Below, piece by piece: positions 16,820 to 41,233 of a stretch of DNA of 41,315 bases. Each line of letters opens with the position of its first letter. The stretch's first letter is position 1. The translations under genes were made by a program, and so were the position numbers. Under the pieces are notes generated by a model. The model was not told the origin of the DNA. It searched no databases and worked only from the letters and a program-made list of their open reading frames with translations. The DNA comes from Haliangiales bacterium (lineage in GTDB: Bacteria > Verrucomicrobiota > Verrucomicrobiia > Limisphaerales > AV2): contig DASPXS010000201.1 in NCBI GenBank assembly GCA_035637175.1, positions 1-41,315 of the forward strand. Direction: 5' to 3'.

Positions 16820-17586
16820 CCGTTCGGCCGATACTCTTTGTCTTCGCGTTTCTGGGAACTCACCTGCCGCAGGCCGCGGGCAACCCTCGTCCCGCGTCCA
16901 ACGCCCAAGGCCAGGCGCTGGCGGCGGAACTCCGACTGGCGCGACCCACGGAGAACCTGGAAGTCAAGGGCCTGTTGAAGATTCGCGATGCCGACGGCAA
17001 ACGCAGCAAGGTTCCTTTTCACTACCGTTTTATCAACGGCGAAAAGGGCTGGGAAAACATTTACGAAACCGAAGCCGGCGGCCAGGCCCCGTCGGAAAGA
17101 CTGGTCGTATTACATCAGGAAGATCGACCGAATCGTTACCTGCATTCCCGGCCGGGCAACACCCATAACCCGCCGGCGGATGCGGCCCCGCTCAGCGGCG
17201 ACAAAGCGATGATTCCCTTCGCCAAATCAGATTTTTGGCTGGCTGACCTTGGCCTGGAGTTTCTGCATTGGCCGGAACAACGCCTCGTCGAAGACGCCAG
17301 AATTAAAATGCGCAAGGGCCGCCCGTGCAAAGTGCTGGAAAGCATCAACCCGCGGCCCGACGCGGCCGGCTATACGCGCGTTCGTTCCTGGATTGACGCG
17401 GAGAAGAGGCAACCCATCCTCGCCGAGGCCTACGGTCCGGACAACAAGCTGATCAAAGAGTTCGAAATCGGGAGCGTGACGAAAGTGAACGGTCAGTGGG
17501 AACTGAAGAACATGGAAATGCGCAACACCAGAGCGGATTCGCAGACTGTTCTCGAGTTCAAGTACGACCAAAAAGCTGCGGAGTAG
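16816..17586 (+). CDS. outer-membrane lipoprotein-sorting (LolA-like) family protein
   Basis: 256 aa with a signal peptide (ILFVFAFLGTHLPQAAG). F.KSDFWLADLG and a C-terminal ...VNGQWELKNMEMRN... resemble the LolA_like family. Its ATG overlaps the lon stop (ATGA). Confidence 0.55.
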   Translation: MTVRPILFVFAFLGTHLPQAAGNPRPASNAQGQALAAELRLARPTENLEVKGLLKIRDADGKRSKVPFHYRFINGEKGWENIYETEAGGQAPSERLVVLHQEDRPNRYLHSRPGNTHNPPADAAPLSGDKAMIPFAKSDFWLADLGLEFLHWPEQRLVEDARIKMRKGRPCKVLESINPRPDAAGYTRVRSWIDAEKRQPILAEAYGPDNKLIKEFEIGSVTKVNGQWELKNMEMRNTRADSQTVLEFKYDQKAAE

Positions 17587-17587
17587 C

Positions 17588-17685
17588 GGAGAGTTGGAGT
17601 GTTGGGGAAAATCGCCTTGAAGACGAACTCGCCGCGCCAATACTCCATCGCTCCACCACTCCAACACTCCGTTACTCCCCACTCC
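17588..17685. repeat. CTCCAAYACTCC / GGAGTRTTGGAG inverted-repeat element, copy 2
   Basis: GGAGAGTTGGAGTGTTGGGG, then ~30 nt, then CCAATACTCCATCGCTCCACCACTCCAACACTCCGTTACTCCCCACTCC. It starts 2 nt after the stop of the upstream gene. Confidence 0.7.
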
Positions 17686-17741
17686 CCTCCCCTTCCCTCT
17701 TCCCGGCGTGACTTTTGCGCCAAAGTCTTGTCCAATCGGCG

Positions 17742-18389
17742 ATGGCAACTTTTGTGTCAATGGCCGAGCCTGCACAAACCGGATCCTCATCTGTTTCTGA
17801 GGAGGCGAACCGCGCCAAGGCGGACGCCGCGGCAACGACCGCCCCGGGCGGGCCTTTTTCCATCGGCGATCGACCGAAGTGGGCCGTGCCCGAATTCGGC
17901 GCGATTTACGAGGAGCACTCCCGCCCGGTTTATTACCTCGCGCTGCGTTTTCTCGGCGATCCCGCACAAGCCGAGGACGCGACTCACGACGTCTTCTTGA
18001 AGGCCTATCGCAAACTCGGTGAATTTCGCGGTGACTCGGCAATGCGCACCTGGCTTTACCGCATCACGATCAATCACTGCAAAAATCTTTTGCAGACCTG
18101 GCACCATCGGCACATGGTCAACAACGCCGACGAGAGCCTCTGGGAAAGCGCCCCGGCCAGCGCGGAGAATCCCTTGCGGGTGCTGGAAATCAAGGAACTC
18201 GGCCAACGCATCCAGAAAACTCTCGATGTTCTGCCGGAAGAATACCGGCTTTTACTGCTGCTGGTCGCGGATCAACAGATGAGCTACAACGAAATCGCCG
18301 CGTTGACCGGGCAGAGCCCGGACGCCGTTCGCGGCAAATTGCACCGCGCCCGCAAGGCTTTCATCGCCCAGTTCCAGAAATCTGCCTGA
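17742..18389 (+). CDS. ECF-type RNA polymerase sigma-70 factor
   Basis: Region 2 reads YYLALRFLGDPAQAEDATHDVFLKAYRKLGEFRGDSAMRTWLYRITINHCKN. Region 4 reads LPEEYRLLLLLVADQQMSYNEIAALTGQSPDAVRGKLHRARKAF. The start is uncertain: TTG 17715, ATG 17742 or ATG 17760. Confidence 0.88.
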   Translation: MATFVSMAEPAQTGSSSVSEEANRAKADAAATTAPGGPFSIGDRPKWAVPEFGAIYEEHSRPVYYLALRFLGDPAQAEDATHDVFLKAYRKLGEFRGDSAMRTWLYRITINHCKNLLQTWHHRHMVNNADESLWESAPASAENPLRVLEIKELGQRIQKTLDVLPEEYRLLLLLVADQQMSYNEIAALTGQSPDAVRGKLHRARKAFIAQFQKSA

Positions 18390-18393
18390 ACCT

Positions 18394-18627
18394 ATGAACC
18401 CGAACACCTCGAAACTGCGACAGAAACAGGAAACCACGGAGCAAATCGCCTCGCAGCAGACCGCCCGTGAATTTGCCTCCCCGGAAGAGATGCTTCGCCA
18501 CGACGCCGGACAAATCAGCCCCCCGCCCGGCCTGGCCCATCGCGTGGCGGAGTCGATCGCGAAAGAACCGAGACCCGCGCGCTCGTGGTGGCAGCGATGG
18601 TTCTCGCGCCGTTCCACCAATCCATGA
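18394..18627 (+). CDS. small hypothetical protein downstream of the ECF sigma (possible anti-sigma or partner, no TM helix)
   Basis: 77 aa. It starts 4 nt after the sigma stop, and its stop overlaps the next ATG (ATGA), which argues that it is translated. I recognise no motif in it. Confidence 0.45.
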   Translation: MNPNTSKLRQKQETTEQIASQQTAREFASPEEMLRHDAGQISPPPGLAHRVAESIAKEPRPARSWWQRWFSRRSTNP

Positions 18628-19493
18628 CTTGCGTCGAACACGCCGTATCGCGGCCGCGACTGCCAAACCGGTCGGAGCGGGCCCGCTCGCGCATCGAGAC
18701 CGCGCGCCTCGCGCTGGCGGAATGCCGTTTATGCGCGCATCACTGCGGCGTGAATCGGCTCGCAGGCGAACGCGGGCTTTGCCGTGCCGGCGCCGGAACC
18801 CGCCTTTTCCAGGCGCAAGCCGAGGTGTCGGATGAACTCGAACTTGTTCCCACGTTCGCCATCGCGTTGAGCGGATGCGATCTGCGCTGCGCTTTCTGCA
18901 TTACCGGCGCGGAGAGTTGGAATCCCCGCGCCGGCGAACCCGTCGATCCTTTTGCCCTCGCGATGAAGGCGCAGGCGGCGCTGGACGACGGCGCGCGCAC
19001 GGTAATGATTCTGGGCGGTGAACCGACCATTCACCTTCCGACCGTGTTGGAAATCGTCGCCGGGTTGCCGGACAACGCGAAACTGGTCTGGAAAACCAAT
19101 GCGCACGGTTCGGTTCAGGCGCGCGAACTGCTGGACGGACTGTTCGATGTCTGGCTGGCGGACTATAAATTCGGCAACGACAGTTGTGCCGAACGGTTGG
19201 CGCGAGTTTCGGACTACACGCGCGTTGTTCAGGAGAATCTGCTTTGGGCCAACGAACACAGCGAACTCATCGTCCGGCATCTGGTCATGCCGGGCCATGT
19301 GGATTGTTGTTGGGCGCCGGTCGCGCGTTGGTTGGCGGAGAACCTGCCCGGTGTGAAAGTCAACTTGCGCACCGGCTTTTGGCCGGCATGGCAAGTGGCG
19401 CGTCATACTGAATTGCGTGGCACCGTTTCGACGACCGAAGCCAATCGCGCGTGGCGGATCGCCTGCGAACGAGACCTGCACTTGATAGAATGA
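18624..19493 (+). CDS. radical SAM protein, PflX-like (pyruvate formate-lyase activase-related)
   Basis: Start moved to the ATG at 18624 (MTCVEH). The N-terminal C.LC..HCGVNR..GE.G.C motif is typical of COG1313/PflX. The radical SAM cluster is CDLRCAFC (CxxxCxxC). Confidence 0.75.
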   Translation: MTCVEHAVSRPRLPNRSERARSRIETARLALAECRLCAHHCGVNRLAGERGLCRAGAGTRLFQAQAEVSDELELVPTFAIALSGCDLRCAFCITGAESWNPRAGEPVDPFALAMKAQAALDDGARTVMILGGEPTIHLPTVLEIVAGLPDNAKLVWKTNAHGSVQARELLDGLFDVWLADYKFGNDSCAERLARVSDYTRVVQENLLWANEHSELIVRHLVMPGHVDCCWAPVARWLAENLPGVKVNLRTGFWPAWQVARHTELRGTVSTTEANRAWRIACERDLHLIE

Positions 19494-30813: not shown

Positions 30814-31905
30814 TCAGGTTTTTTCCCGCCCCGACGGAGGAAAATCAATCCCGCCGGCATTACCCAACCGGGTGTCACGCGTGTCCGGCGCCAGTTTCGA
30901 GTCCCGAAGACGAACGGCGTGGCCGGACTTTCGTCGGCGGAGCGGATGGAACTGAAATTCGGCCGGCTGCGAAGCGGCTTCATCAACCCGCAGTTCGCAA
31001 TAGCCGCCGTCCTTTAACAATTCGATACCGGCGATGGCGGGGCAGAGTCGGGTCCTGAACTCGCGCCAGCAGCGGGCCTCGTTCAGCGCGCGGCTCATGC
31101 GCCGGATGGAGTTGCCCAGGAAGCGAATTGCGGGCATGCCGGCCAGCATCTGGCTGTTGCGAAAGTACCAATTGGAATGCAGATGTCCGATGATGGTTTG
31201 TTCCACCTGATTCAACTTGCTCCGCACGGTCTCGTCCTGCCGCAGAAACGGCAAGGCCGTGGGATCATGGCAAAACAACAGCACGCGCTGCTCCGGTCGC
31301 AGATTGGCAAAGGCGCGACGAATCTCCGTCAAATGCTCCCGGCGCAAAGCCGCCCACTCCTTCCGTTCCCCAGGCAAAGCTTCCGGTTCATAAACCGGAA
31401 ACGCCAGGAGCGAAGAGGTGACGCCCAATAAAACATAGTTGCCGACTGCGCTTCGCCAAAAGGGTTGCAAGGCCAGTTCGGTCGTGGCGCGGCGCCAGCT
31501 TGCAAGACGAAAGCCCCCTTTGCCGCCGAACAAACTCATCTTGCCCAGTTCATGGTCGCCGATGACGCTTCGCAATTTGGGACCGAAACGGTCGCGGAGT
31601 TTGGCCAAACACTGACGCGCGCTCTCGAAGGCCGCGTCGTCGCACACCCCGATGAACTCGGTGTCGCAGGAATAATCGCCATTGGTAACGACGACGTCGG
31701 GAGAATCGGCCCGGGCCAGAAACTCGTCGAGCAGATGGTTGTGGGCAAAGGGATCGCGCAGCCAGACGTAGTGGCGGTAGGCCTTGACCGCGCGTCTGAG
31801 CAGCGGATTGGCAATGATGCGCGTCTCATGTCCGCGCCGCTGCTTTTCCGCCTCGGACGCGTAATGAATGTCGCTGAGAATCAGGATGGTCTGTTGTCGC
31901 GCCAT
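30814..31905 (-). CDS. metallophosphoesterase (calcineurin-like)
   Basis: 363 aa. Metal-binding motifs appear in order: LSDIHYA, TNGDYS, GDHELG, and GHLH near the C-terminal third. Confidence 0.8.
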   Translation of the reverse strand: MARQQTILILSDIHYASEAEKQRRGHETRIIANPLLRRAVKAYRHYVWLRDPFAHNHLLDEFLARADSPDVVVTNGDYSCDTEFIGVCDDAAFESARQCLAKLRDRFGPKLRSVIGDHELGKMSLFGGKGGFRLASWRRATTELALQPFWRSAVGNYVLLGVTSSLLAFPVYEPEALPGERKEWAALRREHLTEIRRAFANLRPEQRVLLFCHDPTALPFLRQDETVRSKLNQVEQTIIGHLHSNWYFRNSQMLAGMPAIRFLGNSIRRMSRALNEARCWREFRTRLCPAIAGIELLKDGGYCELRVDEAASQPAEFQFHPLRRRKSGHAVRLRDSKLAPDTRDTRLGNAGGIDFPPSGREKT

Positions 31906-32194: not shown

Positions 32195-33388
32195 CTATGA
32201 TGTCTTCGTCAGCGGCAACATGATTTTGAACGTCGTACCCTTGTTGACTTCGCTCTCCACTTTGATCCGGCCGCGGTGCTCTTGAATGATCCGGGCTGTA
32301 ATCGCCAGTCCCAGGCCGGTCCCTTCGGGTTTTGTGGTCACGAACGGGACGAAGAGGCGGGTGAACAGCTCCGGCACGATGCCGGAACCGGTGTCCTTGA
32401 TGCTGACCTGAATCTGCTCCCGTTTGCCCTTCGATTCCGCGCGCGAAATGTGGTCGGTGGCGACGACGACTTCCGTGGCCACGGTCAGCGTGCCCGTTTC
32501 CTCCATGGCTTCGATGGCGTTTAGCAGGAGATTGATCACGGCCTGTTCCAACTGTTTGGCATCTCCCTGCACGTTATCGAATCCGGCATCGAGAGCGCGA
32601 ACCAGATGGATTTTTCGCACCTTGATCTGGTGCTGCACCAGTCGAAGCGAGTTCTCGATCACTTCATGCAGGTTCACGCTGGAGAAAGTGGGTTTGGCCG
32701 GCCCCGCGAACTTCAGGAGTTGGCTGACCAGCGAATCAATCCGGTTGGCCTCGCGGCTGACGAGAGCGCTCATCTCGACATCCTGGTTCCGCTGCTCCAG
32801 AAGGTCGGCGAAGGATTTGAAGGCCACCAGCGCGTTCTTGATCTCGTGCGCCACGCCGGCAGAGAGGGTGCCGATGCTGGCCAAGCGTTCGAGCCGGCGG
32901 ATGCGGCGTTCCAGTTTCCTGGCCGAATCGAGATCGTGAAAAACCGCGATCACGACGAGCGGCCGGCTCGATGCGTCCACGCACAAAGAAGTATTGGCAT
33001 GAACAGTCATCTTTTCTTCCGCGTCGGGAAACAGAACGAAGGTTCGGTCGGTGACGGGTTTGCCGGAAACAAAGGTTTCCTCGATGGCCTGTTGCAGAGC
33101 CGCGGGCAGCCCCGACATCGGCCGGCCGAGCAGCGCCTGCGCCTCCAGGCCGGTCGCCCGCTCGGCGACGCGATTGAAAGCGGTCACGTTCCTTTGCGCA
33201 TCCACGGCCACCAAGGCTGGTTCCAACGAACGGAACAGAGCGCCCCAAAGGTTCAATCGCTCGGTTCGTCGCTTTTGAAAACTGGTTTCTTGAATCAGCA
33301 TACGGGCGTTTGGCAGGGCTGCTGCGAACCGGGCGTCGTTCAGTGGATGGAAATGACAACCGCCGAATTCAGTGCAAACCGCAGTCAA
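32195..33388 (-). CDS. PAS-domain sensor histidine kinase (soluble, NtrB/AtoS-like)
   Basis: 397 aa. It has a PAS-like region (LVAVDAQRNVTAFNRVAERATGL), the H-box GVAHEIKNAL, the N-box INLLLNAIEA, G1 DTGSGI and G2 GTGLGLAI. No cognate response regulator is adjacent. The start is TTG at the ORF top or an internal ATG (MLIQ). Confidence 0.85.
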   Translation of the reverse strand: MTAVCTEFGGCHFHPLNDARFAAALPNARMLIQETSFQKRRTERLNLWGALFRSLEPALVAVDAQRNVTAFNRVAERATGLEAQALLGRPMSGLPAALQQAIEETFVSGKPVTDRTFVLFPDAEEKMTVHANTSLCVDASSRPLVVIAVFHDLDSARKLERRIRRLERLASIGTLSAGVAHEIKNALVAFKSFADLLEQRNQDVEMSALVSREANRIDSLVSQLLKFAGPAKPTFSSVNLHEVIENSLRLVQHQIKVRKIHLVRALDAGFDNVQGDAKQLEQAVINLLLNAIEAMEETGTLTVATEVVVATDHISRAESKGKREQIQVSIKDTGSGIVPELFTRLFVPFVTTKPEGTGLGLAITARIIQEHRGRIKVESEVNKGTTFKIMLPLTKTS

Positions 33389-33608: not shown

Positions 33609-34454
33609 ATGCGAGAGCTTTCGGGCAAGACGGCGATTCTGACGGGCGCTTCGGGCGGACTGGGGCGGTATATTGCTCTGGCCCTGGCTCAACGCGGAGT
33701 GAATCTGGTTCTGGCGGCCTATCCCGGGGAAGGGCTTGAAAGCCTCAATGAAGCGGTGAGTCAGCAGGGTGTCCGCGCGATTCCGCTCGTCGCCAATTTC
33801 CGCCACGCTTCCCAACTGCGATCTGTGGTCGAAGTAGCGAACAAGGAATTTGGCCGAATCGACCTGTTGATTAACAACGCGGGCGTGGAATTCACTTCCG
33901 CCTATCACGAACTGCCCGAAGAAAACATTGGCGATATCATCGGCATCAATCTGGAGGCGCCGATGCTGCTCACGCGTCTGGTGTTGCCGGACATGCTGGC
34001 GAGAGGTTGCGGGCATATTGTGAACATGGCATCGCTGGCCGGCAAATCCGGTCCGGCTTTTCAGGAGCCGTACGCGGCCACCAAGGCGGCGCTGATTGCG
34101 TTCACGGTCTCACTGCGCGCCTCGTATCGCGGAACCGGAGTCAGTGCTTCGGTGATCTGTCCCGGTTTCGTGGAGGCGGGAATCTACGCAAAGTTGAAGA
34201 AAGAAACAGGGTTCGTGGCTCCAGCGTTGCTGGGCACTTCGCCTCCGGAGCCTGTGGCCCGTGCTGTGGTTAAGGCAATCCATCGCGATTTACCCGAGGT
34301 TATTGTTAATCCCCTCCCGGTAAAACTGCTATTTGCGACCGCGATATTGTTCCCTCGGCTGGGAGAGTTTCTGGTAAGCAGAACTGGTGCGCACGAATTC
34401 TTTGCCAAGGCTGCCGAGGCGTTGAAACGAAAGCGACTCGATGCTCAAAAGTGA
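33609..34454 (+). CDS. SDR family oxidoreductase
   Basis: I prefer the ATG at 33609 (MRELSGKTAILTGASGGLGRYIA). It has TGxxxGxG cofactor-binding, NNAG and the catalytic YAATKAAL. The track ORF begins at an upstream TTG (33528). Confidence 0.85.
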   Translation: MRELSGKTAILTGASGGLGRYIALALAQRGVNLVLAAYPGEGLESLNEAVSQQGVRAIPLVANFRHASQLRSVVEVANKEFGRIDLLINNAGVEFTSAYHELPEENIGDIIGINLEAPMLLTRLVLPDMLARGCGHIVNMASLAGKSGPAFQEPYAATKAALIAFTVSLRASYRGTGVSASVICPGFVEAGIYAKLKKETGFVAPALLGTSPPEPVARAVVKAIHRDLPEVIVNPLPVKLLFATAILFPRLGEFLVSRTGAHEFFAKAAEALKRKRLDAQK

Positions 34455-35662
34455 TAGCCCATTGAAAAGTTAACGGCCTGATTGAAAAATTGGTAGCTCC
34501 CGTCGGCGGAATTGCCGTTGCTGATTTGTCGAGCGGGACCGGCGATAATTTGCCCGGAAATCGCCCAGTCCCAGTGTTCTCCTTTGTGACCGAACCCCAG
34601 ACTGGCGACATGCAGATCCGTGTCCGGCAGGATCGGATTGAAGTCGGCATCAGTGGTGGAGTTCTGGCTGAAAAAGTATCCCGCACTAATCCGGTATCCA
34701 TTTGGCAGATAACGCGAGACGCCTAAGTGGGCGAGATAACTGGATTTCCAGTTCAGCGCAAACGGCACATCACCAAGGGCTGTCCCTTTGAACGTGACCG
34801 TATCAACCGTGTCCCAATCCGTCCAATCCACCCCCACTTCGATATTCCAGTTCGTCGTCGGCCGAAATGAAATGCCACCCATGATGAACTGGGGAAAATC
34901 CAATTCCGCCGAAGTTCCGTTTTTCTGAGGCAAGAATGGTTTGGCCGTGGAATTGCCCCGGTATTTGACCGTGGTTGGGCTGACGTAGCTGACGCCGAAG
35001 GACCATTGGGGGTGTGGTTGCCACAGCAAGCCAACCTTGGCGCCATACGCGAAACCATTGCCGCGAAACCTGAACTCGTCGCCCGAGACCAGACCGATGC
35101 CATTTCGCAGCATTGCGGTCGAAAAATTTACCGTCGGCCCTGCCGCGATGGAAAGCGTCGAGTTGACCCGCCACGCAGCGATCGGACTGATCGTGACGTA
35201 CTGAAGCCGTCCCTCTTGTGCGAGATTACGGAAGACAACGTTTCCCGGCCACTCCAACCCGAGCCCAAATGGGGCATAAATCCCGAGTCCAAACGCGAGC
35301 GGGTAGTCCTTCGGCGAGTACACGTAATAAAACTGAGGAACCGGCAGAATCTCGGATTCGGTGTCGGCTTCGACACCGCCGGTGGCAGCTTTGAAGTGAG
35401 AATTTACGGAAAGCAAGTGCGCTCCGATTTGAGCATTGTGTCCCTCGAGTTGCGTAATGCCTGCCGGATTGTAGTACAGGGCAGACGGATTGTCCGCGGT
35501 GGCAACGAACGCATTTCCACGGGCGGTTGCCTCGGCATCCTGGTTTGGAATACGCAACCCCAGTCCAAAGACCGGACCCGAATGGAAAGAAAAACCAACC
35601 AAGGCAAGGGCGGTTGGGAGCCCGCGACAGAATCTGGTGTTCAGGTGCATGGCCTTCAACAT
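34445..35662 (-). CDS. outer-membrane transport protein, OMPP1/FadL/TodX family
   Basis: 405 aa. It has a signal peptide, the N-terminal hatch motif ARGNAFVATADNPSALYYNPAGI, alternating beta-strand pattern throughout, and a C-terminal aromatic residue (...SMGYHF). Confidence 0.85.
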   Translation of the reverse strand: MLKAMHLNTRFCRGLPTALALVGFSFHSGPVFGLGLRIPNQDAEATARGNAFVATADNPSALYYNPAGITQLEGHNAQIGAHLLSVNSHFKAATGGVEADTESEILPVPQFYYVYSPKDYPLAFGLGIYAPFGLGLEWPGNVVFRNLAQEGRLQYVTISPIAAWRVNSTLSIAAGPTVNFSTAMLRNGIGLVSGDEFRFRGNGFAYGAKVGLLWQPHPQWSFGVSYVSPTTVKYRGNSTAKPFLPQKNGTSAELDFPQFIMGGISFRPTTNWNIEVGVDWTDWDTVDTVTFKGTALGDVPFALNWKSSYLAHLGVSRYLPNGYRISAGYFFSQNSTTDADFNPILPDTDLHVASLGFGHKGEHWDWAISGQIIAGPARQISNGNSADGSYQFFNQAVNFSMGYHF

Positions 35663-35824
35663 CTGGCGGAAATGCCCGTTTGATGCAAAGAAAAAATCAG
35701 GGTTGTGTTGACCGCAGATTTTGTCGGGTTGCTCGTCTTCGCCGACCGAACGTGAAAAACGATTGTGCTATTCATGCCATGAAATTTCTGTTATCCAGCC
35801 GTCGAGAGAGACGGTGAGTGCGCA

Positions 35825-37264
35825 ATGCCTGCAATGACAGACATCAATTCGGACGGAAGCCTGGTGACGGGCGAAATCGGCCAGGGAATAGAATTTCGCG
35901 GCAACACCGTGCGACTCATGCGCCATTTAGCCGTCTTCGAAATCTACAATCTCGCATTGGTGCTCCGGCTCTCTGAAGTGCTGACGAATTTCAAGATCGT
36001 GGCCAATGATGTTCCCCTCTATGTGGGCCGTGCCGTGGTCAACAATCTGCTGTACACGGCTACGCTGGTTATTTGCGAAGCCACCTTGGACGAGTCGGGC
36101 TGGATCGACGTGGATTTCAACTGCGTGAGGAACGGCGGCGTCGGGCTGGCGAAGGAGTATGAGAACTTCGTTCGCCGATGGCAGAAAAACTACAAAGTCA
36201 CTCAGCCATTCAAGTTGATTATAGCCGACATGCGGACTTTTTTCATGGACATGCAACTCTGGCTGGATCAAGTGGAATTGGGCATTCGTGCTTCACCGTC
36301 CGGCGACCGTTCGAAGCTGGAACAAGCGGTGACGGATGAATTAGCCTCGGCCATCATTCCGTCCATCAACACGCTTTTTGAGAAGTTCGAGAACGCGGCG
36401 CAGAATCTCGAGCCGCACCTGCTGCCCATTCACAGCAGCTATATGCGGCGGCAACTCCACCCTTTCGTTCTCTGCGCGCCTTTTCCGCACCGCACTTTCT
36501 GCAAACCCTTGGGTTACGCCGGAGACTACGAGATGGTCAACATGATCGCGCGCGACGTGCATGAAGGAGGGTCCCTGTATGCGAAAATTGTCAACTGTTG
36601 GTTCCTGAAACAACCGCCGGCGCAGGCGCACCGCAATCGGCTTCGTTATTTGCAGGACAAATTGATTGAAGAGACGTTGCGCGTCATGAGAGCGGGCAGG
36701 CAGGCGCGAATCTGCAATCTGGCGTGCGGTCCCGCGGTCGAAGTCCAGAGATTTCTGGACGAACAGGAGATCAGTAACCAGGCGCATTTCTCTCTCATCG
36801 ATTTCAACGACGAGACACTCGAACACGCGCAGATGAAGCTGGATAGCGTCAAAGCCCGACACTACCGGCGCTCTTCAGTGCAATACGTCAAGAAGTCCGT
36901 CCAACGTATTCTCAGGGACAGCGTGCGGACGTTTGAACGCCCGCCGCAGGATCAGTATGATTTCGTCTATTGCGCCGGGTTGTATGATTATCTGCCCGAC
37001 CAGGTATGTCGGTTGTTGACGGACCTCTTGTATGAGTGGGTGGCTCCGGGAGGACTGCTGCTGTTAACGAACGTGGAGCCATCGAATCCGCTTCGCAACG
37101 GGATGGAGCACCTGCTGGATTGGCATCTGGTGTATCGGACCGGACGGCAATTTGAAGCGCTTCAACCCAAGCGCGCTTCCGCGGATTCTGTCGCGGTGCG
37201 TGCGGATCTGACGGGGGTGAATTTGTTCCTTGAAGTTCGCAAGCCGGACCATGCCAAGCGATAG
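35825..37264 (+). CDS. PhcB-like protein: N-terminal uncharacterised domain plus a C-terminal class I SAM-dependent methyltransferase
   Basis: 479 aa. The methyltransferase motif I is ARICNLACGPAVE. This is followed by FSLIDFNDETL, YDFVYCAGLYDYLPD and APGGLLLLTNV. The size and two-domain layout match what I recall for Ralstonia PhcB-type 'extracellular factor' synthases. The family assignment is not verified by search. Confidence 0.6.
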   Translation: MPAMTDINSDGSLVTGEIGQGIEFRGNTVRLMRHLAVFEIYNLALVLRLSEVLTNFKIVANDVPLYVGRAVVNNLLYTATLVICEATLDESGWIDVDFNCVRNGGVGLAKEYENFVRRWQKNYKVTQPFKLIIADMRTFFMDMQLWLDQVELGIRASPSGDRSKLEQAVTDELASAIIPSINTLFEKFENAAQNLEPHLLPIHSSYMRRQLHPFVLCAPFPHRTFCKPLGYAGDYEMVNMIARDVHEGGSLYAKIVNCWFLKQPPAQAHRNRLRYLQDKLIEETLRVMRAGRQARICNLACGPAVEVQRFLDEQEISNQAHFSLIDFNDETLEHAQMKLDSVKARHYRRSSVQYVKKSVQRILRDSVRTFERPPQDQYDFVYCAGLYDYLPDQVCRLLTDLLYEWVAPGGLLLLTNVEPSNPLRNGMEHLLDWHLVYRTGRQFEALQPKRASADSVAVRADLTGVNLFLEVRKPDHAKR

Positions 37265-39911
37265 GATTACGAGCCAACCGGGGTTTGCAGAGGCGTTTCG
37301 GGCCAACGAGCGCCAGGAGCGGATTAATACCGGCAAGGTGGCTTCGGCGCTTGTGGTCTTCCTGATGCCGCTCGGAGTAACTCTGGATTTCTTCGTTTAC
37401 CACGAGTGGTTGCAGTTCTTTCTCCTGCTCCGCCTCGCGTGCTCGGCTTTGGCCGGTTTCATCTGGTACTGGCACACCACCCGCCTGGGGCAGGAACATT
37501 ACAAGCTCCTGGGACTTCCAATTGCCCTGTTGCCCGCCTTTTTTATCGCCTGGATGATTTATGAGACCGAGGGTCCCGTTTCACCGTATTACGCCGGCCT
37601 GAACCTGATTCTTTTGGCCGTAAGTGTCGTCGTGCATTGGAGCGTCCGCGAATCGGTGATCGCAGTCGGCGGCGTGCTGCTCATGTACTCGGCCGCCTGC
37701 CTGCTGAAAGGAACCAAAGAGCAACTTCCCATTATTTTCAACAACTTCTACTTCCTGTTCTTAACCGGCATCATTGTCATCACGGGAAACCATTTCTTCA
37801 ATCGCCTTCGCCAGCGCGAATTCGCCTTGCGCTACGAACTGGATCAAAACCGCCAGAAACTCGAGGAAACCAATCGCAAACTCACGGAACTCGACCAGAT
37901 CAAAAGCCGCTTTTTCGCGAATATCAGCCACGAACTGCGCACCCCGCTCACGCTGCTCCTCGCGCCGCTCGAAGCCCTGCTGCACCAGCGCGGCCGGGTC
38001 ACGGACCCCGAGACACGCGGTCTTCTGACGACAATGCACTCGAATGGCATGCGCCTGCTCAAGTTGATCAACGACCTGCTCGACCTGGTGCGCCTGGAGT
38101 CCGGTCGCATGGAGGTCAAACGCGAGCCGCTGGAATTGACCGAGTTCATCAAGGGCCTGGCCAGCGCCGCACGACAGGTCGCCGACGACAAACGGATCAA
38201 GCTCGAAACCTGGGTGACTCCGGAACTGGAAACGGTTCTCGCCGATCGCGACAAGCTTGAAAAAATCGTGCTCAATCTATTGTTCAATGCCCTGAAGTTC
38301 ACGCCGGCCGGCGGGCGGGTGGATTTGCGGGCGGAAAAACAAGGCGATGAACTCGTCCTCCTGGTCAAAGACACGGGCATGGGCATTTCGCGGAAGAATC
38401 TGCCGTTCATCTTCGACCGGTTCTGGCAGGCGGACGGCTCCGCCCGCCGGAAATATCAGGGCGTCGGCATCGGCCTGGCGTTGGTGAAGGAACTGACGGA
38501 GATTCAGGAGGGACAGGTCAGTGTGGAAAGCGAAGAAGGCAAAGGAACCACGTTCGCCGTCCGGTTCCCCTGCCGGCAGGCCGAGTCGAAACGGGAAACG
38601 CAGGCAGTCCCGGAACCCGCCAGGCCGGACGAAGAAGGGCCGCCGACAGGGACCGTGACCTCGGAGGAGTGGCTCGCCAATTTGTATCGCCGCGCCGAGT
38701 TGTTCCCGGCATTGACGCCGGTTCAGGAAGCGGTACGGCCCGTGGAGACGTTGCCTGGCGGAAAGCGCCCGACGGTCCTGGTGGCGGACGATGAGCCGGA
38801 CATGTTGCGCTTCCTGAAATCCCAATTAAGCCGGCATTACAATGTGTTGGAAGCGGTGGACGGGCAGCAGGCCATCGAAAAGGCAAACCAGTTCCTGCCG
38901 GACATCGTCCTGCTCGACATGATGATGCCGGAGAAAGACGGATTGCAGGCCTGCAAGGAACTCAAGGAACGGACCACCACCCAAAACATTCCCGTGGTTC
39001 TCCTCACGGCCCGCGCGGACGAGGAAACCAAACTCGCGTCGCTTTCGGCCGGCGCCAGCGACTTCCTGTCGAAGCCGTTTTCGACGACCGAACTGCACGT
39101 GCGGGTCAAGAACCTGATCGAGTCCTATCAACTGCAACGCAAGCTCGCCCGGCAGAACCAGCTCCTCGAATCCACCATCGAACAACTCAAGGAAACCGAA
39201 GTGCAGCTCGTTCAGGCCGAGAAGCTCGCGTCGCTCGGCCGCATGAGCGCGGGCATCATCCATGAGATCAACAATCCGCTCAACTTCGCCACGACCGGAC
39301 TTTTCACGCTGCGCAAAAAGACAACCCACGTCGCCCCGGAACATCAACCGGAGTTTGCCGAAATCCTCGGGGACGTCGAGGAGGGCGTCAAACGGGTGAA
39401 AAACATCGTGTCCGATCTGCGGTCGTTCACGCACCACAACACCGGCCTGATCGAGAAGGTCAAAGTGGCCGAGGTGGTGGCCACGGCGCTTCGTTTCACG
39501 AGCAACGAGTGGAAGGACCAGGTTGCGATTCATCGGCAGATTCCCGACGACCTGGTCATCGAAGCCAACAAAAACAAAATGACCCAGGTGTTTGTCAATC
39601 TCCTGCAAAACGCGCTGGACGCGCTGACGCAAAAGGTCTTTGAAAATGAAACGCCGGCGATTTCGATCGAGGGACGCATCGAAGACGGCCGAACGGTCCT
39701 GTCGGTCCGGGACAACGGCACGGGCATCGACCCGGCCATTGTGAACAAGATTTTCGATCCGTTCTTCACCACCAAGGATGTCGGGCAAGGCATGGGGCTG
39801 GGCTTGAGCATCTCTTACCGCATCCTGGAGGAATGCGGCGGGCGGATCAACGTGCGGACGGAGCCGGGCAAGTTCGCGGAATTTCTGTTGGTGTTTCCGC
39901 GGAAAGCGTAG
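37251..39911 (+). CDS. membrane hybrid sensor kinase with two kinase cores: 6-TM sensor, HisKA/HATPase, REC, second HisKA/HATPase
   Basis: The ATG at 37251 overlaps the upstream gene end by 14 nt. About six TM helices span aa ~36-190. H-box 1 is SHELRTPL, with N/G1/G2 boxes (LLFNALKF, DTGMGI, GVGIGLAL). The REC domain has VLVADDE...VLLDMMMP...KPF. H-box 2 is IHEINNPL, with intact N/G1/G2 (LLQNALDA, DNGTGI, GQGMGLGL). Confidence 0.88.
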   Translation: MPSDRITSQPGFAEAFRANERQERINTGKVASALVVFLMPLGVTLDFFVYHEWLQFFLLLRLACSALAGFIWYWHTTRLGQEHYKLLGLPIALLPAFFIAWMIYETEGPVSPYYAGLNLILLAVSVVVHWSVRESVIAVGGVLLMYSAACLLKGTKEQLPIIFNNFYFLFLTGIIVITGNHFFNRLRQREFALRYELDQNRQKLEETNRKLTELDQIKSRFFANISHELRTPLTLLLAPLEALLHQRGRVTDPETRGLLTTMHSNGMRLLKLINDLLDLVRLESGRMEVKREPLELTEFIKGLASAARQVADDKRIKLETWVTPELETVLADRDKLEKIVLNLLFNALKFTPAGGRVDLRAEKQGDELVLLVKDTGMGISRKNLPFIFDRFWQADGSARRKYQGVGIGLALVKELTEIQEGQVSVESEEGKGTTFAVRFPCRQAESKRETQAVPEPARPDEEGPPTGTVTSEEWLANLYRRAELFPALTPVQEAVRPVETLPGGKRPTVLVADDEPDMLRFLKSQLSRHYNVLEAVDGQQAIEKANQFLPDIVLLDMMMPEKDGLQACKELKERTTTQNIPVVLLTARADEETKLASLSAGASDFLSKPFSTTELHVRVKNLIESYQLQRKLARQNQLLESTIEQLKETEVQLVQAEKLASLGRMSAGIIHEINNPLNFATTGLFTLRKKTTHVAPEHQPEFAEILGDVEEGVKRVKNIVSDLRSFTHHNTGLIEKVKVAEVVATALRFTSNEWKDQVAIHRQIPDDLVIEANKNKMTQVFVNLLQNALDALTQKVFENETPAISIEGRIEDGRTVLSVRDNGTGIDPAIVNKIFDPFFTTKDVGQGMGLGLSISYRILEECGGRINVRTEPGKFAEFLLVFPRKA

Positions 39912-39970
39912 CAGTGTATCGGAAGATTGAAACGGGGCCGGCGCGGCGGCGGAGGGAGGAATTGCGATTT

Positions 39971-41233
39971 ATGAACAACTATTATGATTACAAAAAATTC
40001 GCCATCCTTTACGTGGATGACGAAGAGAAGTCGCTGAAGTATTTCACGCGGGCCTTCGAAGACCAGTTTCGGATCCTGACCGCCGCCCGGGCGGATGACG
40101 GATTGAAGCTGGTGGAAGAACACCAGGGCGATCTGGGGGTGCTGATGACGGACCAGCGCATGCCCGGCAACAAGGGCGTTTGGCTGCTGGAAAAAGCGCG
40201 GCAAATTCAGCCGCGCATCATTCGAATCCTGGCGACGGCCTATGCCGATATGGATGCGGCGATCGCCGCCATCAACAGCGGCGCCATTTACAAATACGTC
40301 ACCAAACCGTGGGACCCGCCCACCCTCGAAAACACGCTGAAACGCGCCCTGGAATTCTTCATCGTGCAACGCGAGCGCGACCAGCTTCTCCGCGAGAAAC
40401 TCGCCGTCCTGCACAACATGATGATCGCCGACCGCATGGTCAGCCTGGGGCTGCTGGCGGCGGGTTTGAGCCATCACATTCGCAACTCGCTCGTCGCGGT
40501 GAAGACGTTTCTCGACCTGGCGCCGTCGAAGCTCAAGGAGGAAGAGGTGCAGATGGACAATCTTCGCAATCCGGACTTCTGGAAGGATTACTATCGCAAT
40601 GTCCAGACCCAGATCGAGAAGATCAACAACATGTTGAAAGATCTCTGGGCCGCCTCGGAAAAACCCTCCTTTGAGTTCAAGGACGTCGTGCATCTGAACC
40701 AGGTCATTGCCGGGGTGCTGGAAAAGCTCAAGGACAAGCTGGCGGCCAAAAAAATCGGCGTGACCGTCAGCATTCCGGACTCTCTTCCGGCGCTTACGGT
40801 GGACGAACCCAAGTTCGTCCGGCTGTTTGAGCTGCTGATCGAGGATGAAGTCGTGAGTCTGCCTCCGGGCAGTCAGGTCAGCATCAGCGCGCAGAGTGAC
40901 TACCGCATGGTCAAACAGGGCGAAATTCGCATCGAAGTGCGGGACAACGGGCCGGGCCTGCCGGAAGACGCGCTGCGGTTGATCTTCGATCCGTTCCTGG
41001 TGCGTTCCGACAGCCCCATGGAGTACGGCATCAAGTTGATGGCGTGTTTTTTCATTGTGCATCACCACGGCGGCACGATCATCGCCCAGAGCCAGGAGCA
41101 GAAGGGCACGAATTTCATGGTCCGGCTGCCGATCAATCCGAACCAACGACCGTTGGTGGACGAGAACCAGCAATTCTTCGAGAAGATCCTGATGAATGAC
41201 GTCATGTGGGAGAAGCTCATCACGTCCGACTGA
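39971..41233 (+). CDS. response-regulator receiver fused to a histidine-kinase-like domain with a degenerate ATP-binding site (PhcR-like layout)
   Basis: The ATG at 39971 is preceded by GGAGGGAGGAA. The REC domain has ILYVDDEE...VLMTDQRMPG...TKPW. The DHp-like H-box is LSHHIRNSL. In the HATPase-like region the N-box Asn is absent (LFELLIEDEVV), G1 is present (DNGPGL) and G2 is degenerate (EYGIKLMACF). Confidence 0.8.
   Translation: MNNYYDYKKFAILYVDDEEKSLKYFTRAFEDQFRILTAARADDGLKLVEEHQGDLGVLMTDQRMPGNKGVWLLEKARQIQPRIIRILATAYADMDAAIAAINSGAIYKYVTKPWDPPTLENTLKRALEFFIVQRERDQLLREKLAVLHNMMIADRMVSLGLLAAGLSHHIRNSLVAVKTFLDLAPSKLKEEEVQMDNLRNPDFWKDYYRNVQTQIEKINNMLKDLWAASEKPSFEFKDVVHLNQVIAGVLEKLKDKLAAKKIGVTVSIPDSLPALTVDEPKFVRLFELLIEDEVVSLPPGSQVSISAQSDYRMVKQGEIRIEVRDNGPGLPEDALRLIFDPFLVRSDSPMEYGIKLMACFFIVHHHGGTIIAQSQEQKGTNFMVRLPINPNQRPLVDENQQFFEKILMNDVMWEKLITSD

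Follow-up and report, generated by a model that had tools for sequence, protein, structure and literature searches.

Gene content of the locus

The window analyzed here, a stretch of 41,315 nt, contains three consecutive plus-strand genes whose products are homologous to proteins of the Phc cell-cell signalling system of Ralstonia (Table 1). An initial annotation of this DNA had described a SAM methyltransferase of about 480 aa whose gene overlaps by 14 nt that of a six-helix kinase, a description supported by the ORFs, the Pfam matches and helix prediction. It had also likened the locus to the Ralstonia phc operon, and this likeness was borne out by the homology of all three proteins and by their gene order. 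The host, considered there PVC-like, is a verrucomicrobium, the closest named relatives of its GroEL showing 91-97% identity. The end of the locus at position 41233 had to be revised, however, because the locus extends further in sister contigs, where two more receiver-kinases, a REC-GAF-PAS-HK of 679 aa and a second REC-HK of 429 aa, are encoded beyond the window end.

Table 1. Features of the Phc-like locus and its flanks, with coordinates in the window.
Feature	Coordinates (nt)	Strand	Residues	Evidence
Conserved neighbour, 363 aa, weak calcineurin-like phosphoesterase match	30814..31905	-		PF00149 E 1e-4
Cytoplasmic PAS histidine kinase, conserved neighbour	32195..33388	-		PAS + HisKA + HATPase_c
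Short-chain dehydrogenase/reductase (SDR)	33609..34454 (alternative start 33528)	+		PF00106 E 1.8e-48
FadL/TodX-family outer-membrane channel, divergent from methyltransferase	34445..35662	-		PF03349 E 3.5e-37
Divergent fadL/methyltransferase intergenic region, 162 nt, presumed promoter region	35663..35824	.		gene coordinates
PhcB-family SAM-dependent methyltransferase, putative signal synthase, 479 aa	35825..37264	+		41% identity to Ralstonia PhcB
Methyltransferase: PilZ-like beta-barrel (predicted)	35858-36088		aa 12-88
Methyltransferase: helical bundle (predicted)	36146-36694		aa 108-290
Methyltransferase: Rossmann methyltransferase domain (predicted)	36704-37240		aa 294-472
Hybrid sensor kinase, 886 aa from ATG: PhcS-type membrane domain, canonical core, receiver, PhcS-type core	37251..39911	+		Pfam, piecewise PhcS comparison
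Kinase: membrane sensor domain, six predicted helices	37251..37850	+	aa 1-200	PhcS membrane-domain homology
Kinase: inserted core 1; H-box His227, N, G1 and G2 boxes intact	37851..38630	+	aa 201-460	HisKA, HATPase_c matches
Kinase: internal receiver; D513, D556, T586, K608	38763..39125	+	aa 505-625	PF00072 E 3.4e-28
Kinase: PhcS-type core 2; H671, N787, G1 and G2 boxes intact	39141..39908	+	aa 631-886	PhcS core homology
PhcQ/PhcR-like receiver-kinase protein, 420 aa	39971..41233 (mechanical ORF from 39833)	+		receiver + HisKA + HATPase_c (Pfam)

The PhcB-family methyltransferase

PhcB is known as a signal synthase (PMC11960443, PMC8578825), the enzyme that makes 3-OH MAME/PAME (PMC11960443, PMC7154725). 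A Pfam search of the 479-aa methyltransferase gave weak class-I SAM-methyltransferase matches at aa 274-430 and zero matches in aa 1-270. In direct comparison, the protein is 41% identical to PhcB of Ralstonia sp. R-29 over 454 aa (E 1e-109), with aa 19-470 aligned to aa 16-460. The initial annotation had named membership of an unrelated methyltransferase family, with no resemblance to the PhcB N-terminal domain and together with a lack of conserved linkage to the kinases, as the result that would speak against it; instead, the N-terminal domain is covered by the alignment and similar. Identity was 38% with the Cupriavidus necator protein and 35% with a Paraburkholderia homologue. The SAM-binding and family-invariant motifs are intact (KPLGYAGDY at aa 227-235, motif I NLACGPA at 298-304, D326 and YCAGL(F/Y)DY at 382-389), and KPLGYAGDY, xxCGPA, the acidic residue after strand 2 and YCAGLFDY are invariant in the Burkholderiales and verrucomicrobial members. 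The AlphaFold2 model (pLDDT 89) has small-molecule O-, C- and N-methyltransferases as its top structural matches. Members of the family carry a fused canonical PilZ domain in some lineages, and that of Verrucomicrobium spinosum carries a fused receiver domain. No curated model or solved structure of the PhcB family was found for checking the substrate residues. Since identity to the characterised PhcB is only 35-41%, the substrate could differ from that of PhcB in chain length, hydroxylation or even compound class.

The expanded sensor kinase

The ATG of the kinase gene produces the 14-nt overlap with the methyltransferase stop; an alternative TTG lies upstream at 37230, and independent gene callers gave the same start as ours on sister contigs. 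Six hydrophobic helices were located at about aa 30-177. The membrane domain is 29% identical to that of Ralstonia PhcS over 199 aa (E 5e-14), matches a Paraburkholderia PhcS-like protein with E 6e-19 and shows 60-64% identity with other verrucomicrobial loci. MASE8 is among the precomputed Pfam matches for the equivalent gene on sister contigs and was not recovered by hmmscan in aa 1-216 of the window kinase.

PhcS has a simple layout of about 445 aa, in which the membrane domain is followed directly by one core, and this is not matched by the 886-aa window kinase. The earlier claim of an extra REC and a second kinase core fused in this protein was confirmed by Pfam and by piecewise comparison with PhcS. 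The core corresponding to that of Ralstonia PhcS is core 2 (38.5% identity, E 1e-54; 61% with the single core of L089's simple kinase), and its H671, within IHEINNP, aligns with H230 of PhcS, within LHEINNP, which is the autophosphorylated residue (PMC11960443). Core 1 shares only about 25% identity with PhcS and with core 2. Among the loci compared the internal receiver is confined to expanded kinases, and the simple kinases of L089, L092 and L093 (464-470 aa) have neither core 1 nor the REC; these three loci with the simple PhcS architecture show that core 1 and the REC are an insertion.

The receiver-kinase protein

The third protein had been described as a receiver with a kinase-like output and likened to PhcR. 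The REC, HisKA and HATPase_c matches (E 3.8e-14 for the last) uphold the first description, and the receiver looks functional from its intact residues D16, D61, T89 and K112. The protein also keeps the H-box His168 of the DHp domain and the G1 box, but it has no N-box Asn, the N-box reading LFELLIEDEVVSL, and its G2 box is degenerate (YGIKLMAC), whereas Ralstonia PhcR has LTSNALHAL and GNGMGM. Because the ATP-binding Asn is missing, the 420-aa protein is probably a pseudokinase. An equivalent N-box loss (KDE/EDE) was observed in four more verrucomicrobial loci, those of L088, L089, L090 and V. spinosum.

As for the likeness to PhcR, a prototype cited for the Rec-controlled kinase paradigm (PMC13269768), the two proteins align end to end (27% identity, 388 aa, E 1e-30) and the window protein has no DNA-binding domain. 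Yet judging from sequence it is closer to PhcQ, with which its receiver and linker share 42% identity over 200 aa (E 1e-43) and the SDQRMPG and KPWD motifs, and the L092 orthologue bears the IMG name 'probable response regulator PhcQ'. PhcQ has no recognisable C-terminal kinase motifs, its vestige being at most DNQTQL vs DNGPGL, and in this respect the window protein does not match it. With its H-box present and its N-box Asn absent, the 420-aa protein looks intermediate between PhcR, an intact kinase, and PhcQ, in which the C-terminus has decayed beyond recognition.

Flanking genes

The initial annotation had grouped the FadL channel and the SDR as flanks of the system, and only the former recurs. 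FadL is a neighbour in six of the eight loci scored, with orthologues of 38-83% identity upstream of the methyltransferase in L090, L091, L092, L093 and the P0028 locus; an OprB porin takes its place in L088 and L089. This recurrent neighbour is a candidate route for a hydrophobic signal over the outer membrane, a role proposed from adjacency. Comparison of the loci showed that fadL does not adjoin phcB in Ralstonia. No sigma-70-type consensus match was found within the 162-nt region between the divergent genes. The SDR lies beside the cluster in two of the eight loci, that of the window lineage and that of its closest relative L091 (86% identity), and is probably not part of the conserved system because only these two closest relatives have it adjacent.

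Farther upstream, orthologues of the PAS kinase (46-81% identity) occur near the cluster in L089, L091 and L092, and the protein is a possible additional input kinase. In L089 and L092, the PAS kinase gene adjoins an orthologue of the 363-aa neighbour (59-60% identity). The locus has no gene for a DNA-binding regulator, and a PhcA-like LysR regulator was found neither in the 41 kb of the window nor in the sister-contig flanks. In Ralstonia, however, phcA is itself not adjacent to phcBSRQ.

Conservation and distribution

Each of the nine distinct verrucomicrobial loci that were examined has the order methyltransferase, MASE8 kinase and REC-HK, and one of these loci belongs to the cultured V. 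spinosum DSM 4136 (public assembly GCA_000172155.1). The linkage anticipated in related genomes thus exists, and its presence in nine of nine loci implies that the arrangement is not due to chance. In these nine and in the Ralstonia and Paraburkholderia loci the methyltransferase gene is directly followed by the PhcS-type kinase gene. The sister loci L089, L092 and L093 keep the simple layout known from Ralstonia, with a methyltransferase of about 476-541 aa, a kinase of about 470 aa and a REC-HK of about 420 aa. The PhcB family comprises 1,330 clusters at 50% identity and is present in at least 596 species genomes, and its named members come from at least three phyla: Verrucomicrobiota, Planctomycetota and Pseudomonadota (Alpha- and Betaproteobacteria). 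The Paraburkholderia locus shows full-length homology to all three window proteins, and its methyltransferase shares 63-69% identity with the Ralstonia and C. necator enzymes. A functional Phc system in C. necator is credited to Garg et al. 2000, as cited in PMC3639386.

That such a system in this kind of host would be new proved an overstatement. The IMG/KEGG pipelines have automatically assigned PhcB, PhcS and PhcQ orthology groups to verrucomicrobial genes and the V. spinosum cluster is public, although no paper describing Phc outside Burkholderiaceae was found in the literature search. Nor did any cell-cell signalling system of Verrucomicrobiota come up in the literature searched.

Proposed mechanism and alternative explanations

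From homology, domain anatomy, residue conservation and synteny, we consider the locus to encode a form of the Phc cell-cell signalling system that is native to verrucomicrobia, with a probability of about 0.6; the chemistry of the signal and any dependence on cell density are proposed by analogy. The gene overlap suggests translational coupling of the methyltransferase and the kinase. The PhcB-family enzyme would use SAM to make the methyl ester of a fatty-acid-derived carboxylate, by analogy with PhcB a 3-hydroxy fatty acid, which would give a small, hydrophobic and diffusible ester. This signal would probably cross the outer membrane via the divergently encoded FadL-type channel; the hybrid kinase would sense it within the inner membrane, through its six-helix PhcS-type domain. 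Unlike in Ralstonia PhcS, the sensor would first drive the canonical core (His227), which would phosphorylate the internal receiver (Asp556), and the receiver would in turn switch the PhcS-type core (His671), much as Leptospira LvrB is activated by receiver phosphorylation; this order of phosphotransfer in the two-core kinase is a guess. Phosphate would then pass to Asp61 of the 420-aa protein which, having lost the ATP-binding Asn of its catalytic domain, is probably a phospho-controlled adaptor, a phosphotransfer protein or a phosphatase and not a kinase, and the relay would go on to the two proteins encoded shortly beyond the end of the window, the REC-GAF-PAS-HK and the REC-HK. In Ralstonia itself, phosphotransfer from PhcS to PhcR and PhcQ lacks an in vitro demonstration (PMC8578825). 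As the window has no PhcA-type LysR regulator, the output may well not mirror that of Ralstonia.

The same genes could be Phc homologues that serve no quorum sensing, the methyltransferase modifying an envelope or membrane lipid or detoxifying free fatty acid and the kinase monitoring the result cell-autonomously. The sensor domain, nearly all membrane-embedded with short loops, could read membrane composition, several nearby genes have links to the envelope (those for FadL or OprB channels and, in L088 and L089, for a hydrolase and an LPG_synthase_C protein), and no density-dependent data for any verrucomicrobium were found in the literature searched. We hold this explanation to be unlikely, though deserving of some weight, as the orthologous Ralstonia enzyme makes a secreted product that acts from cell to cell (PMC11960443, PMC8578825), a fatty-acid methyl ester is inherently uncharged and diffusible, and the strict coupling of synthase and sensor, with overlapping genes in nine of nine loci, is typical of autoinducer synthase-receptor pairs.

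The tight coupling to the kinase would also suit a CheR-like adaptation enzyme that methylates the kinase or the receiver proteins and makes no small molecule, and one homologue on a plasmid bears the annotation 'chemotaxis protein CheR'. However, the faint CheR SAM-binding domain matches of some family members are below threshold and cover the generic Rossmann part only, the CheR N-terminal domain is absent, the model is structurally closest to small-molecule methyltransferases and PhcB is described as a 3-OH MAME/PAME synthase (PMC11960443, PMC7154725), which makes this role very improbable. Slighter still are the chances that the cluster was recently acquired from Burkholderiales and is uninformative on verrucomicrobial biology. 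One Paraburkholderia copy does lie on a conjugative plasmid, hence the system can move, but identity to any Burkholderiales PhcB is only 35-41%, and the genes are carried by dozens of verrucomicrobial lineages at 52-75% mutual identity (32-40% for V. spinosum). Moreover, the N-box loss, the inserted module and the FadL neighbour are lineage-specific features common across verrucomicrobia, and the locus is surrounded by housekeeping genes, with no mobile-element genes in its context, and has a G+C content (0.55-0.61) that matches the rest of the window (0.55-0.64).

Implications

In the literature, Phc is seen as something peculiar to the wilt-causing Ralstonia and related Burkholderiaceae, whereas the distribution of these genes suggests that Phc lipid-ester signalling may be far more widespread. 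A bolder extension of the native Phc reading, which we put forward tentatively and with more doubt than conviction, is that Phc-type signalling is an ancient autoinducer system widespread in Verrucomicrobiota and Planctomycetota, with a channel, a cascade and a control of the synthase unknown in Ralstonia. If so, the FadL channel would be dedicated to passage of the signal through the outer membrane, the receiver-gated two-core kinase would feed a receiver-kinase cascade and a pseudokinase adaptor, and the PilZ-fold N-terminal domain would control the synthase, so that a second messenger or phosphorylation would gate the production of signal. Because the PhcB family is large and spans at least three phyla, methyl-ester lipid signals could be a widespread chemical language in soils; Verrucomicrobiota are abundant in soil, water and gut. 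This is relevant to attempts at quenching the signals of Ralstonia in the rhizosphere, and also where metagenomic 'phcB' counts are taken as a measure of Ralstonia. The locus and its relatives form a testable candidate autoinducer system, with V. spinosum DSM 4136 as a cultured carrier.

The verrucomicrobial variants may also inform open questions in Ralstonia. That they have one PhcQ/PhcR-like protein points to PhcQ being a receiver-kinase that has decayed, and the predicted PilZ-like fold offers a candidate function for the N-terminal domain of PhcB, where an adaptive R22C mutation maps.

Comparison with known systems

In the alpha-hydroxyketone systems CqsA/CqsS of Vibrio and LqsA/LqsS of Legionella, a fatty-acid-derived hydrophobic autoinducer is made by a synthase encoded beside its kinase, and the kinase sensor, like that of the window, is a membrane domain of several helices that has hardly any periplasmic portion. 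The CqsA/LqsA synthase is a PLP-dependent acyl-transferase and not a methyltransferase; the likeness is functional and we claim no homology.

Among NCBIfam models, the one that the hybrid kinase matched best was LvrA of the Leptospira LvrA-LvrB-LvrC virulence phosphorelay (322 bits, model positions 176-817 of 819), a likeness that covers the kinase-receiver-kinase part. Orthology was rejected for both LvrA (322 bits vs a cut-off of 1200) and LvrB (65 vs 500). The Lvr system gives the structural paradigm for receiver-controlled kinases (PMC13269768): LvrB has a Rec-DHp-CA arrangement like that of the third gene product, and neither member of the pair has a DNA-binding output. LvrB is an active kinase, whereas the 420-aa protein lacks the N-box Asn, and no signal synthase came up for Lvr in PMC5863495 or PMC13269768.

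The closest counterpart is PhcBSRQ in the species complex of Ralstonia solanacearum, also found in Cupriavidus and Paraburkholderia. Both systems have synthases homologous over their full length (41%), homologous six-helix sensors with a kinase core carrying the H230-equivalent His, homologous receiver proteins without a DNA-binding domain, and a gene order in which the synthase comes first and is coupled to the kinase gene. They differ in that the window sensor kinase contains an inserted complete core and a receiver, and in that a single PhcQ/PhcR-like protein stands in place of the Ralstonia PhcR and PhcQ pair. The verrucomicrobial locus, without a nearby PhcA and in a host of the phylum Verrucomicrobiota, adds two downstream receiver-kinases and a conserved FadL neighbour.

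Organization and genomic setting of the locus

The genes for the PhcB-like methyltransferase (ORF 1), the hybrid sensor kinase (ORF 2) and the receiver-kinase protein (ORF 3) were found where the initial annotation had placed them. The start codon of ORF 2 lies 14 nt within ORF 1, and the same start was picked by the gene callers in five sister contigs. A gene for a FadL/TodX channel diverges from ORF 1, and the gene of a short-chain dehydrogenase/reductase (SDR) converges on it. The locus had been proposed to end with ORF 3. However, the sister contigs indicated that the cluster runs on, as two downstream receiver-kinases, a REC-GAF-PAS-HK protein and a second REC-HK, are encoded directly past the window end in this lineage. 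The remaining window genes are of the housekeeping type: GroEL, DnaK, Lon, a molybdopterin oxidoreductase with FdhD, an ECF sigma factor and a PilT-like ATPase. No LysR regulator was identified within the window, and the locus encodes no DNA-binding protein. A promoter scan gave nothing in the divergent intergenic region between fadL and ORF 1 and terminator counts equalled the shuffle level, both scans being uninformative for a verrucomicrobium.

The closest named relatives of the window GroEL (91-97% identity) belong to Verrucomicrobiae or Verrucomicrobiota MAGs, which makes the host an uncultured verrucomicrobium, in agreement with the PVC-like bacterium first suggested. One GroEL with 98% identity, on a 2-kb contig, is labelled 'Candidatus Binatia bacterium'; amid the verrucomicrobial matches, this label is probably a binning error of that MAG.

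Coordinates of the features analyzed (positions in the window unless a locus or protein is named)
Feature	Position	Strand	Remarks
ORF 1, methyltransferase	35825-37264	+	479 aa
ORF 2, hybrid kinase	37251-39911	+	886 aa; ATG start at 37251
ORF 3, receiver-kinase	39971-41233	+	420 aa; receiver, HisKA and HATPase_c (Pfam)
ORF 1 six-stranded barrel	aa 12-88 (35858-36088)		predicted, AlphaFold2
ORF 1 helical bundle	aa 108-290		predicted, AlphaFold2
ORF 1 Rossmann methyltransferase	aa 294-472		predicted, AlphaFold2
FadL/TodX channel gene	34445-35662	-	PF03349, E 3.5e-37; divergent from ORF 1
SDR gene	to 34454	+	10-nt overlap with the FadL gene
Cytoplasmic PAS histidine kinase	32195-33388	-
Metallophos-like protein	30814-31905	-	363 aa, weak match; adjoins PAS kinase gene
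GroEL gene	4263-5903	-
REC-GAF-PAS-HK and second REC-HK	L003 (sister contig) 15611-19304		679 aa and 429 aa (normal N-box); past window end 41315
Simple kinases	L089 10424-11836; L092 9424-10833; L093 9619-11013		PhcS-like, 464-470 aa
Genes preceding the methyltransferase, no FadL	L088 5288-8825; L089 5152-8700
Verrucomicrobium spinosum DSM 4136 cluster	L094 8001-16523; ABIZ01000001.1 3656491-3674497		cultured type strain
Ralstonia sp. R-29 PhcQ	L078 10928-11947		aligned with 39971-41233
Pseudanabaena methyltransferase, kinase and receiver genes	L002 5947-8566		plasmid pPSE7367.01

Reference Phc loci

Since a PhcB family model is absent from both Pfam and NCBIfam, real Phc loci were needed as references. 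One genome per species was scanned with the pair of motifs best conserved in the family (KPLGYAGDY and YCAGLFDY), and at least 596 genomes showed a match. The best 80 of these, ranked against the Paraburkholderia protein, were all Burkholderiales or other Betaproteobacteria, with several Ralstonia species and Cupriavidus necator among them. These 80 loci did not include R. solanacearum itself, and Ralstonia sp. R-29 and C. necator served as references. The R-29 locus has the canonical layout of phcB (464 aa), phcS (447 aa), phcR (384 aa) and phcQ (339 aa). A tBLASTn search of plasmids revealed one full-length homologue, in Paraburkholderia graminis pPHS1_P, where the next genes encode a kinase of 445 aa and two receiver proteins. 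About 140 partial matches in Rhizobium and others, covering residues 116-479 or 206-479 alone with 25-32% identity, were set aside as a wider, different methyltransferase subfamily.

The methyltransferase

Residues 19-470 of ORF 1 align with residues 16-460 of R-29 PhcB (41% identity over 454 aa, E 1e-109). The alignment spans the N-terminal half, so the lack of resemblance to PhcB in this region that the initial annotation had named as part of a refutation was not observed. Motif I (CGP), D326 and the YCAGL(F/Y)DY segment are family-invariant, common to ORF 1 and the Burkholderiales enzymes. In Pfam, ORF 1 gave sub-threshold matches to class-I SAM-methyltransferases at residues 274-430 and none at residues 1-270. 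It had no match in NCBIfam, and neither did Ralstonia PhcB, so the missing curated match is uninformative. For want of a family model, every member is a 'class I SAM-dependent methyltransferase' at NCBI; the IMG/KEGG name is PhcB.

The AlphaFold2 model of ORF 1 (pLDDT 89, pTM 0.84) comprises three parts (Table). The barrel modelled alone (pLDDT 88) matched almost exclusively PilZ domains in Foldseek (PP4397, MrkH, VCA0042, BcsA, YcgR and Alg44), with TM-scores of 0.6-0.7 at 2.5-3.5 Å and weak E-values (at least 6e-3). No canonical c-di-GMP-binding motifs (RxxxR and DxSxxG) were seen in the barrel, which is accordingly predicted not to bind c-di-GMP, and Pfam PilZ was undetected in ORF 1. We thus predict a PilZ-fold beta-barrel as the N-terminal domain in the PhcB family. 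In a metagenomic protein of 796 aa (P0421), a canonical PilZ domain (PF07238, E 3e-23) is fused ahead of the PhcB-like part. An adaptive R22C mutation of PhcB has been reported in Ralstonia (PMC6989110); R22 equates to R25 of ORF 1, inside the barrel.

The hybrid sensor kinase

ORF 2 had been described as a kinase with six transmembrane segments fused to an extra receiver and a second kinase core. Six hydrophobic helices (about residues 30-177) and the Pfam domains that follow, HisKA/HATPase_c, a receiver and a second HisKA/HATPase_c, agree with this description. Our hmmscan did not recover the membrane sensor domain MASE8 in the N-terminus, although precomputed hits do list it, and this region was therefore judged by direct alignment with R-29 PhcS (29% identity, E 5e-14). 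The PhcS core showed 38.5% identity with core 2 (residues 631-886, E 1e-54) and about 25% with core 1 (E 2e-11). The core 2 H-box IHEINNP (H671) corresponds to that of PhcS, in which H230 is the autophosphorylated residue required for signalling (PMC11960443). All three modules retain their key residues: H227 and the N, G1 and G2 boxes in core 1, D513, D556, T586 and K608 in the receiver, and H671 and N787 in core 2. The NCBIfam LvrA model matches the kinase-receiver-kinase part far under its cut-off, and the likeness to Leptospira LvrA is an architectural analogy, not orthology.

Among nine verrucomicrobial loci, the kinase is expanded in six (886-956 aa) and simple in three (Table), with the architecture of PhcS; core 2 of the window shares 61% identity with the core of the simple kinase in L089. 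The simplest reading of these alignments is that core 1 and the receiver were inserted between a PhcS sensor and a PhcS core. As three lineages have the simple kinase, this module seems to be an insertion gained, or lost, inside the phylum.

The receiver-kinase protein

The third protein had been taken for a PhcR-like receiver with a kinase output. It does align along its full length with R-29 PhcR (27% identity, 388 aa, E 1e-30), but its receiver and linker align with R-29 PhcQ (42% identity, 200 aa, E 1e-43) and the kinase part appears to be degenerate. The protein retains D16, D61, T89, K112 and H168; its N-box has another residue in place of the Asn (LFELLIEDEVVSL) and the G2 box is degenerate (YGIKLMAC). 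The identical Asn loss occurs in L088, L089, L090 and V. spinosum, whereas Ralstonia PhcR has a normal N-box. The aligned C-terminus of PhcQ carries an apparent vestigial G1 box (DNQTQL vs. DNGPGL). Given these features, ORF 3 looks intermediate between PhcR and PhcQ, and is PhcQ-like and probably a pseudokinase. The literature account of the PhcQ C-terminal domain is limited to its lack of a DNA-binding site; by alignment, it resembles a catalytic domain of a histidine kinase that has decayed. PhcQ and PhcR may accordingly be diverged duplicates of one receiver-kinase of the verrucomicrobial kind.

Conserved linkage and alternative explanations

We compared the window lineage (contigs L003-L007) with L088, L089, L090, L091, the contig P0028, L092, L093 and V. 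spinosum (L094). The order methyltransferase, MASE8-type kinase and receiver-kinase of about 420 aa, the triplet for which the initial annotation had proposed a synteny search, was found in all nine loci, with the genes mostly overlapping or nearly abutting, and chance adjacency is rated low. Recent transfer is also given a low rating: G+C is uniform along the window, which contains no mobile-element genes. That ORF 1 might be a CheR-like protein methyltransferase was considered as well and likewise rated low. Sequence comparison with solved structures gave a single marginal match, to a lysine methyltransferase and in the Rossmann part only. Foldseek with the whole model retrieved small-molecule methyltransferases of a generic kind, 3ocj ranking first (E 3e-10), which does not inform on the substrate.

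Eight loci, all but that of V. spinosum, were scored for neighbouring genes. Both the FadL channel and the SDR had been proposed as partners, and only the first held as a conserved neighbour: FadL orthologues (38-83% identity) lie within about 2.5 kb upstream in six loci. The remaining two have an OprB porin, so that the synthase constantly has an outer-membrane channel upstream, of variable family. The SDR is adjacent in just the window lineage and its closest relative (2/8), and was ruled out as a pathway member. Downstream, a REC-GAF-PAS-HK of about 680 aa is present in six loci and a second, catalytically intact REC-HK in four. In L088 and L089, three conserved genes, for an FrsA-like alpha/beta-hydrolase, an LPG_synthase_C protein and the OprB porin, precede the methyltransferase. 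Orthologues of the cytoplasmic PAS kinase (46-81% identity) occur upstream in L089, L091 and L092; in L089 and L092 they adjoin a Metallophos-like protein (325-363 aa, weak match; orthologues 59-60% identical).

Distribution of the family

When 1.84 billion representative proteins were searched with a profile, 1,330 clusters (50% identity) passed E <= 1e-30 and 4,193 passed E <= 1e-10. Identity to the window protein is continuous over 28-57% in the best 150 clusters, of which 38 are nearer to Burkholderiales PhcB. Among the named members are MAGs from Tepidisphaeraceae and other Planctomycetota, Hyphomicrobium sp. CS1GBMeth3, V. spinosum and a second paralogue in Paraburkholderia. The V. spinosum synthase (WP_009961516.1, 668 aa), annotated merely as 'response regulator', has a fused N-terminal receiver domain, and phosphorylation may control signal production in this organism. 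The genes after that of the synthase encode a MASE8 kinase-receiver-kinase of 956 aa, a REC-HK of 414 aa and a PAS-kinase-receiver; synthase, kinase and REC-HK show 32%, 40% and 36% identity to the window proteins.

Full-length PhcB relatives (L017-L087), 59-71% identical to the Paraburkholderia enzyme, extend well beyond Burkholderiaceae within Betaproteobacteria, with carriers in Janthinobacterium, Telluria, Pseudoduganella, Rugamonas, Noviherbaspirillum, Methylotenera, Gallionellaceae and Parvibium. Hosts named in the Phc literature consulted are Ralstonia, Cupriavidus and Paraburkholderia only. A plasmid of Pseudanabaena sp. PCC 7367 carries a 281-aa methyltransferase (annotated coordinates) adjoining a HAMP kinase and a receiver protein; it is homologous to residues 206-474 of ORF 1 only (32% identity) and has a Tn3 transposase alongside. 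Another partial relative (residues 116-479, about 25% identity) is found on about 125 Rhizobium plasmids. There may be a wider methyltransferase superfamily, linked in part to two-component genes.

Proposed signalling and comparison with known Phc systems

That ORFs 1 to 3 are Phc homologues, as first proposed, is close to certain. The best explanation of the cluster, drawn wholly from homology and synteny, is a diffusible lipid-ester quorum-sensing system, to which we assign a probability of roughly 0.6. Ralstonia PhcB makes methyl 3-hydroxymyristate or methyl 3-hydroxypalmitate (PMC11960443, PMC8578825, PMC7154725), and its full-length homology to ORF 1 (41%) suggests that the latter would use SAM to methyl-esterify a fatty-acid-type carboxylate. 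The ester would pass the outer membrane, possibly via the FadL channel, as conserved adjacency hints, and the PhcS-type domain would perceive it within the inner membrane. Because of the extra module, ORF 2 could act as a two-stage sensor in which core 1 phosphorylates D556 and the phospho-receiver then switches core 2. Such a Rec-controlled kinase mechanism has been solved for Leptospira LvrB, with PhcR named as class prototype (PMC13269768). The phosphate would then move on to D61 of ORF 3, which lacks the ATP-binding Asn, is predicted not to bind ATP and is thus less likely to be a kinase than an adaptor, a phosphatase or a phosphotransfer protein.

The initial annotation regarded such a system in a PVC-like bacterium as new. 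The gene family and its automatic labels are in databases already: IMG calls the verrucomicrobial homologues 'extracellular factor (EF) 3-hydroxypalmitic acid methyl ester biosynthesis protein' and their partners 'sensor histidine kinase PhcS' and 'probable response regulator PhcQ', and NCBI lists generic methyltransferases, hypothetical proteins and hybrid kinases. The verrucomicrobial system with its rewired architecture appears undescribed, as literature searches on phcB or Phc outside Burkholderiaceae, including Verrucomicrobia, K19620 and 3-OH PAME in metagenomes, returned incidental co-mentions only. A supposedly narrow signalling system is now extended to a major, poorly understood phylum, and V. 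spinosum is a cultured organism, ready for experiments, in which a Phc-like system is testable. The locus is no new principle. In Ralstonia, FadL does not adjoin phcB. Ralstonia PhcQ works by binding and stabilising PhcA (PMC13320629), and by analogy a protein-protein output is plausible for the verrucomicrobial locus too.
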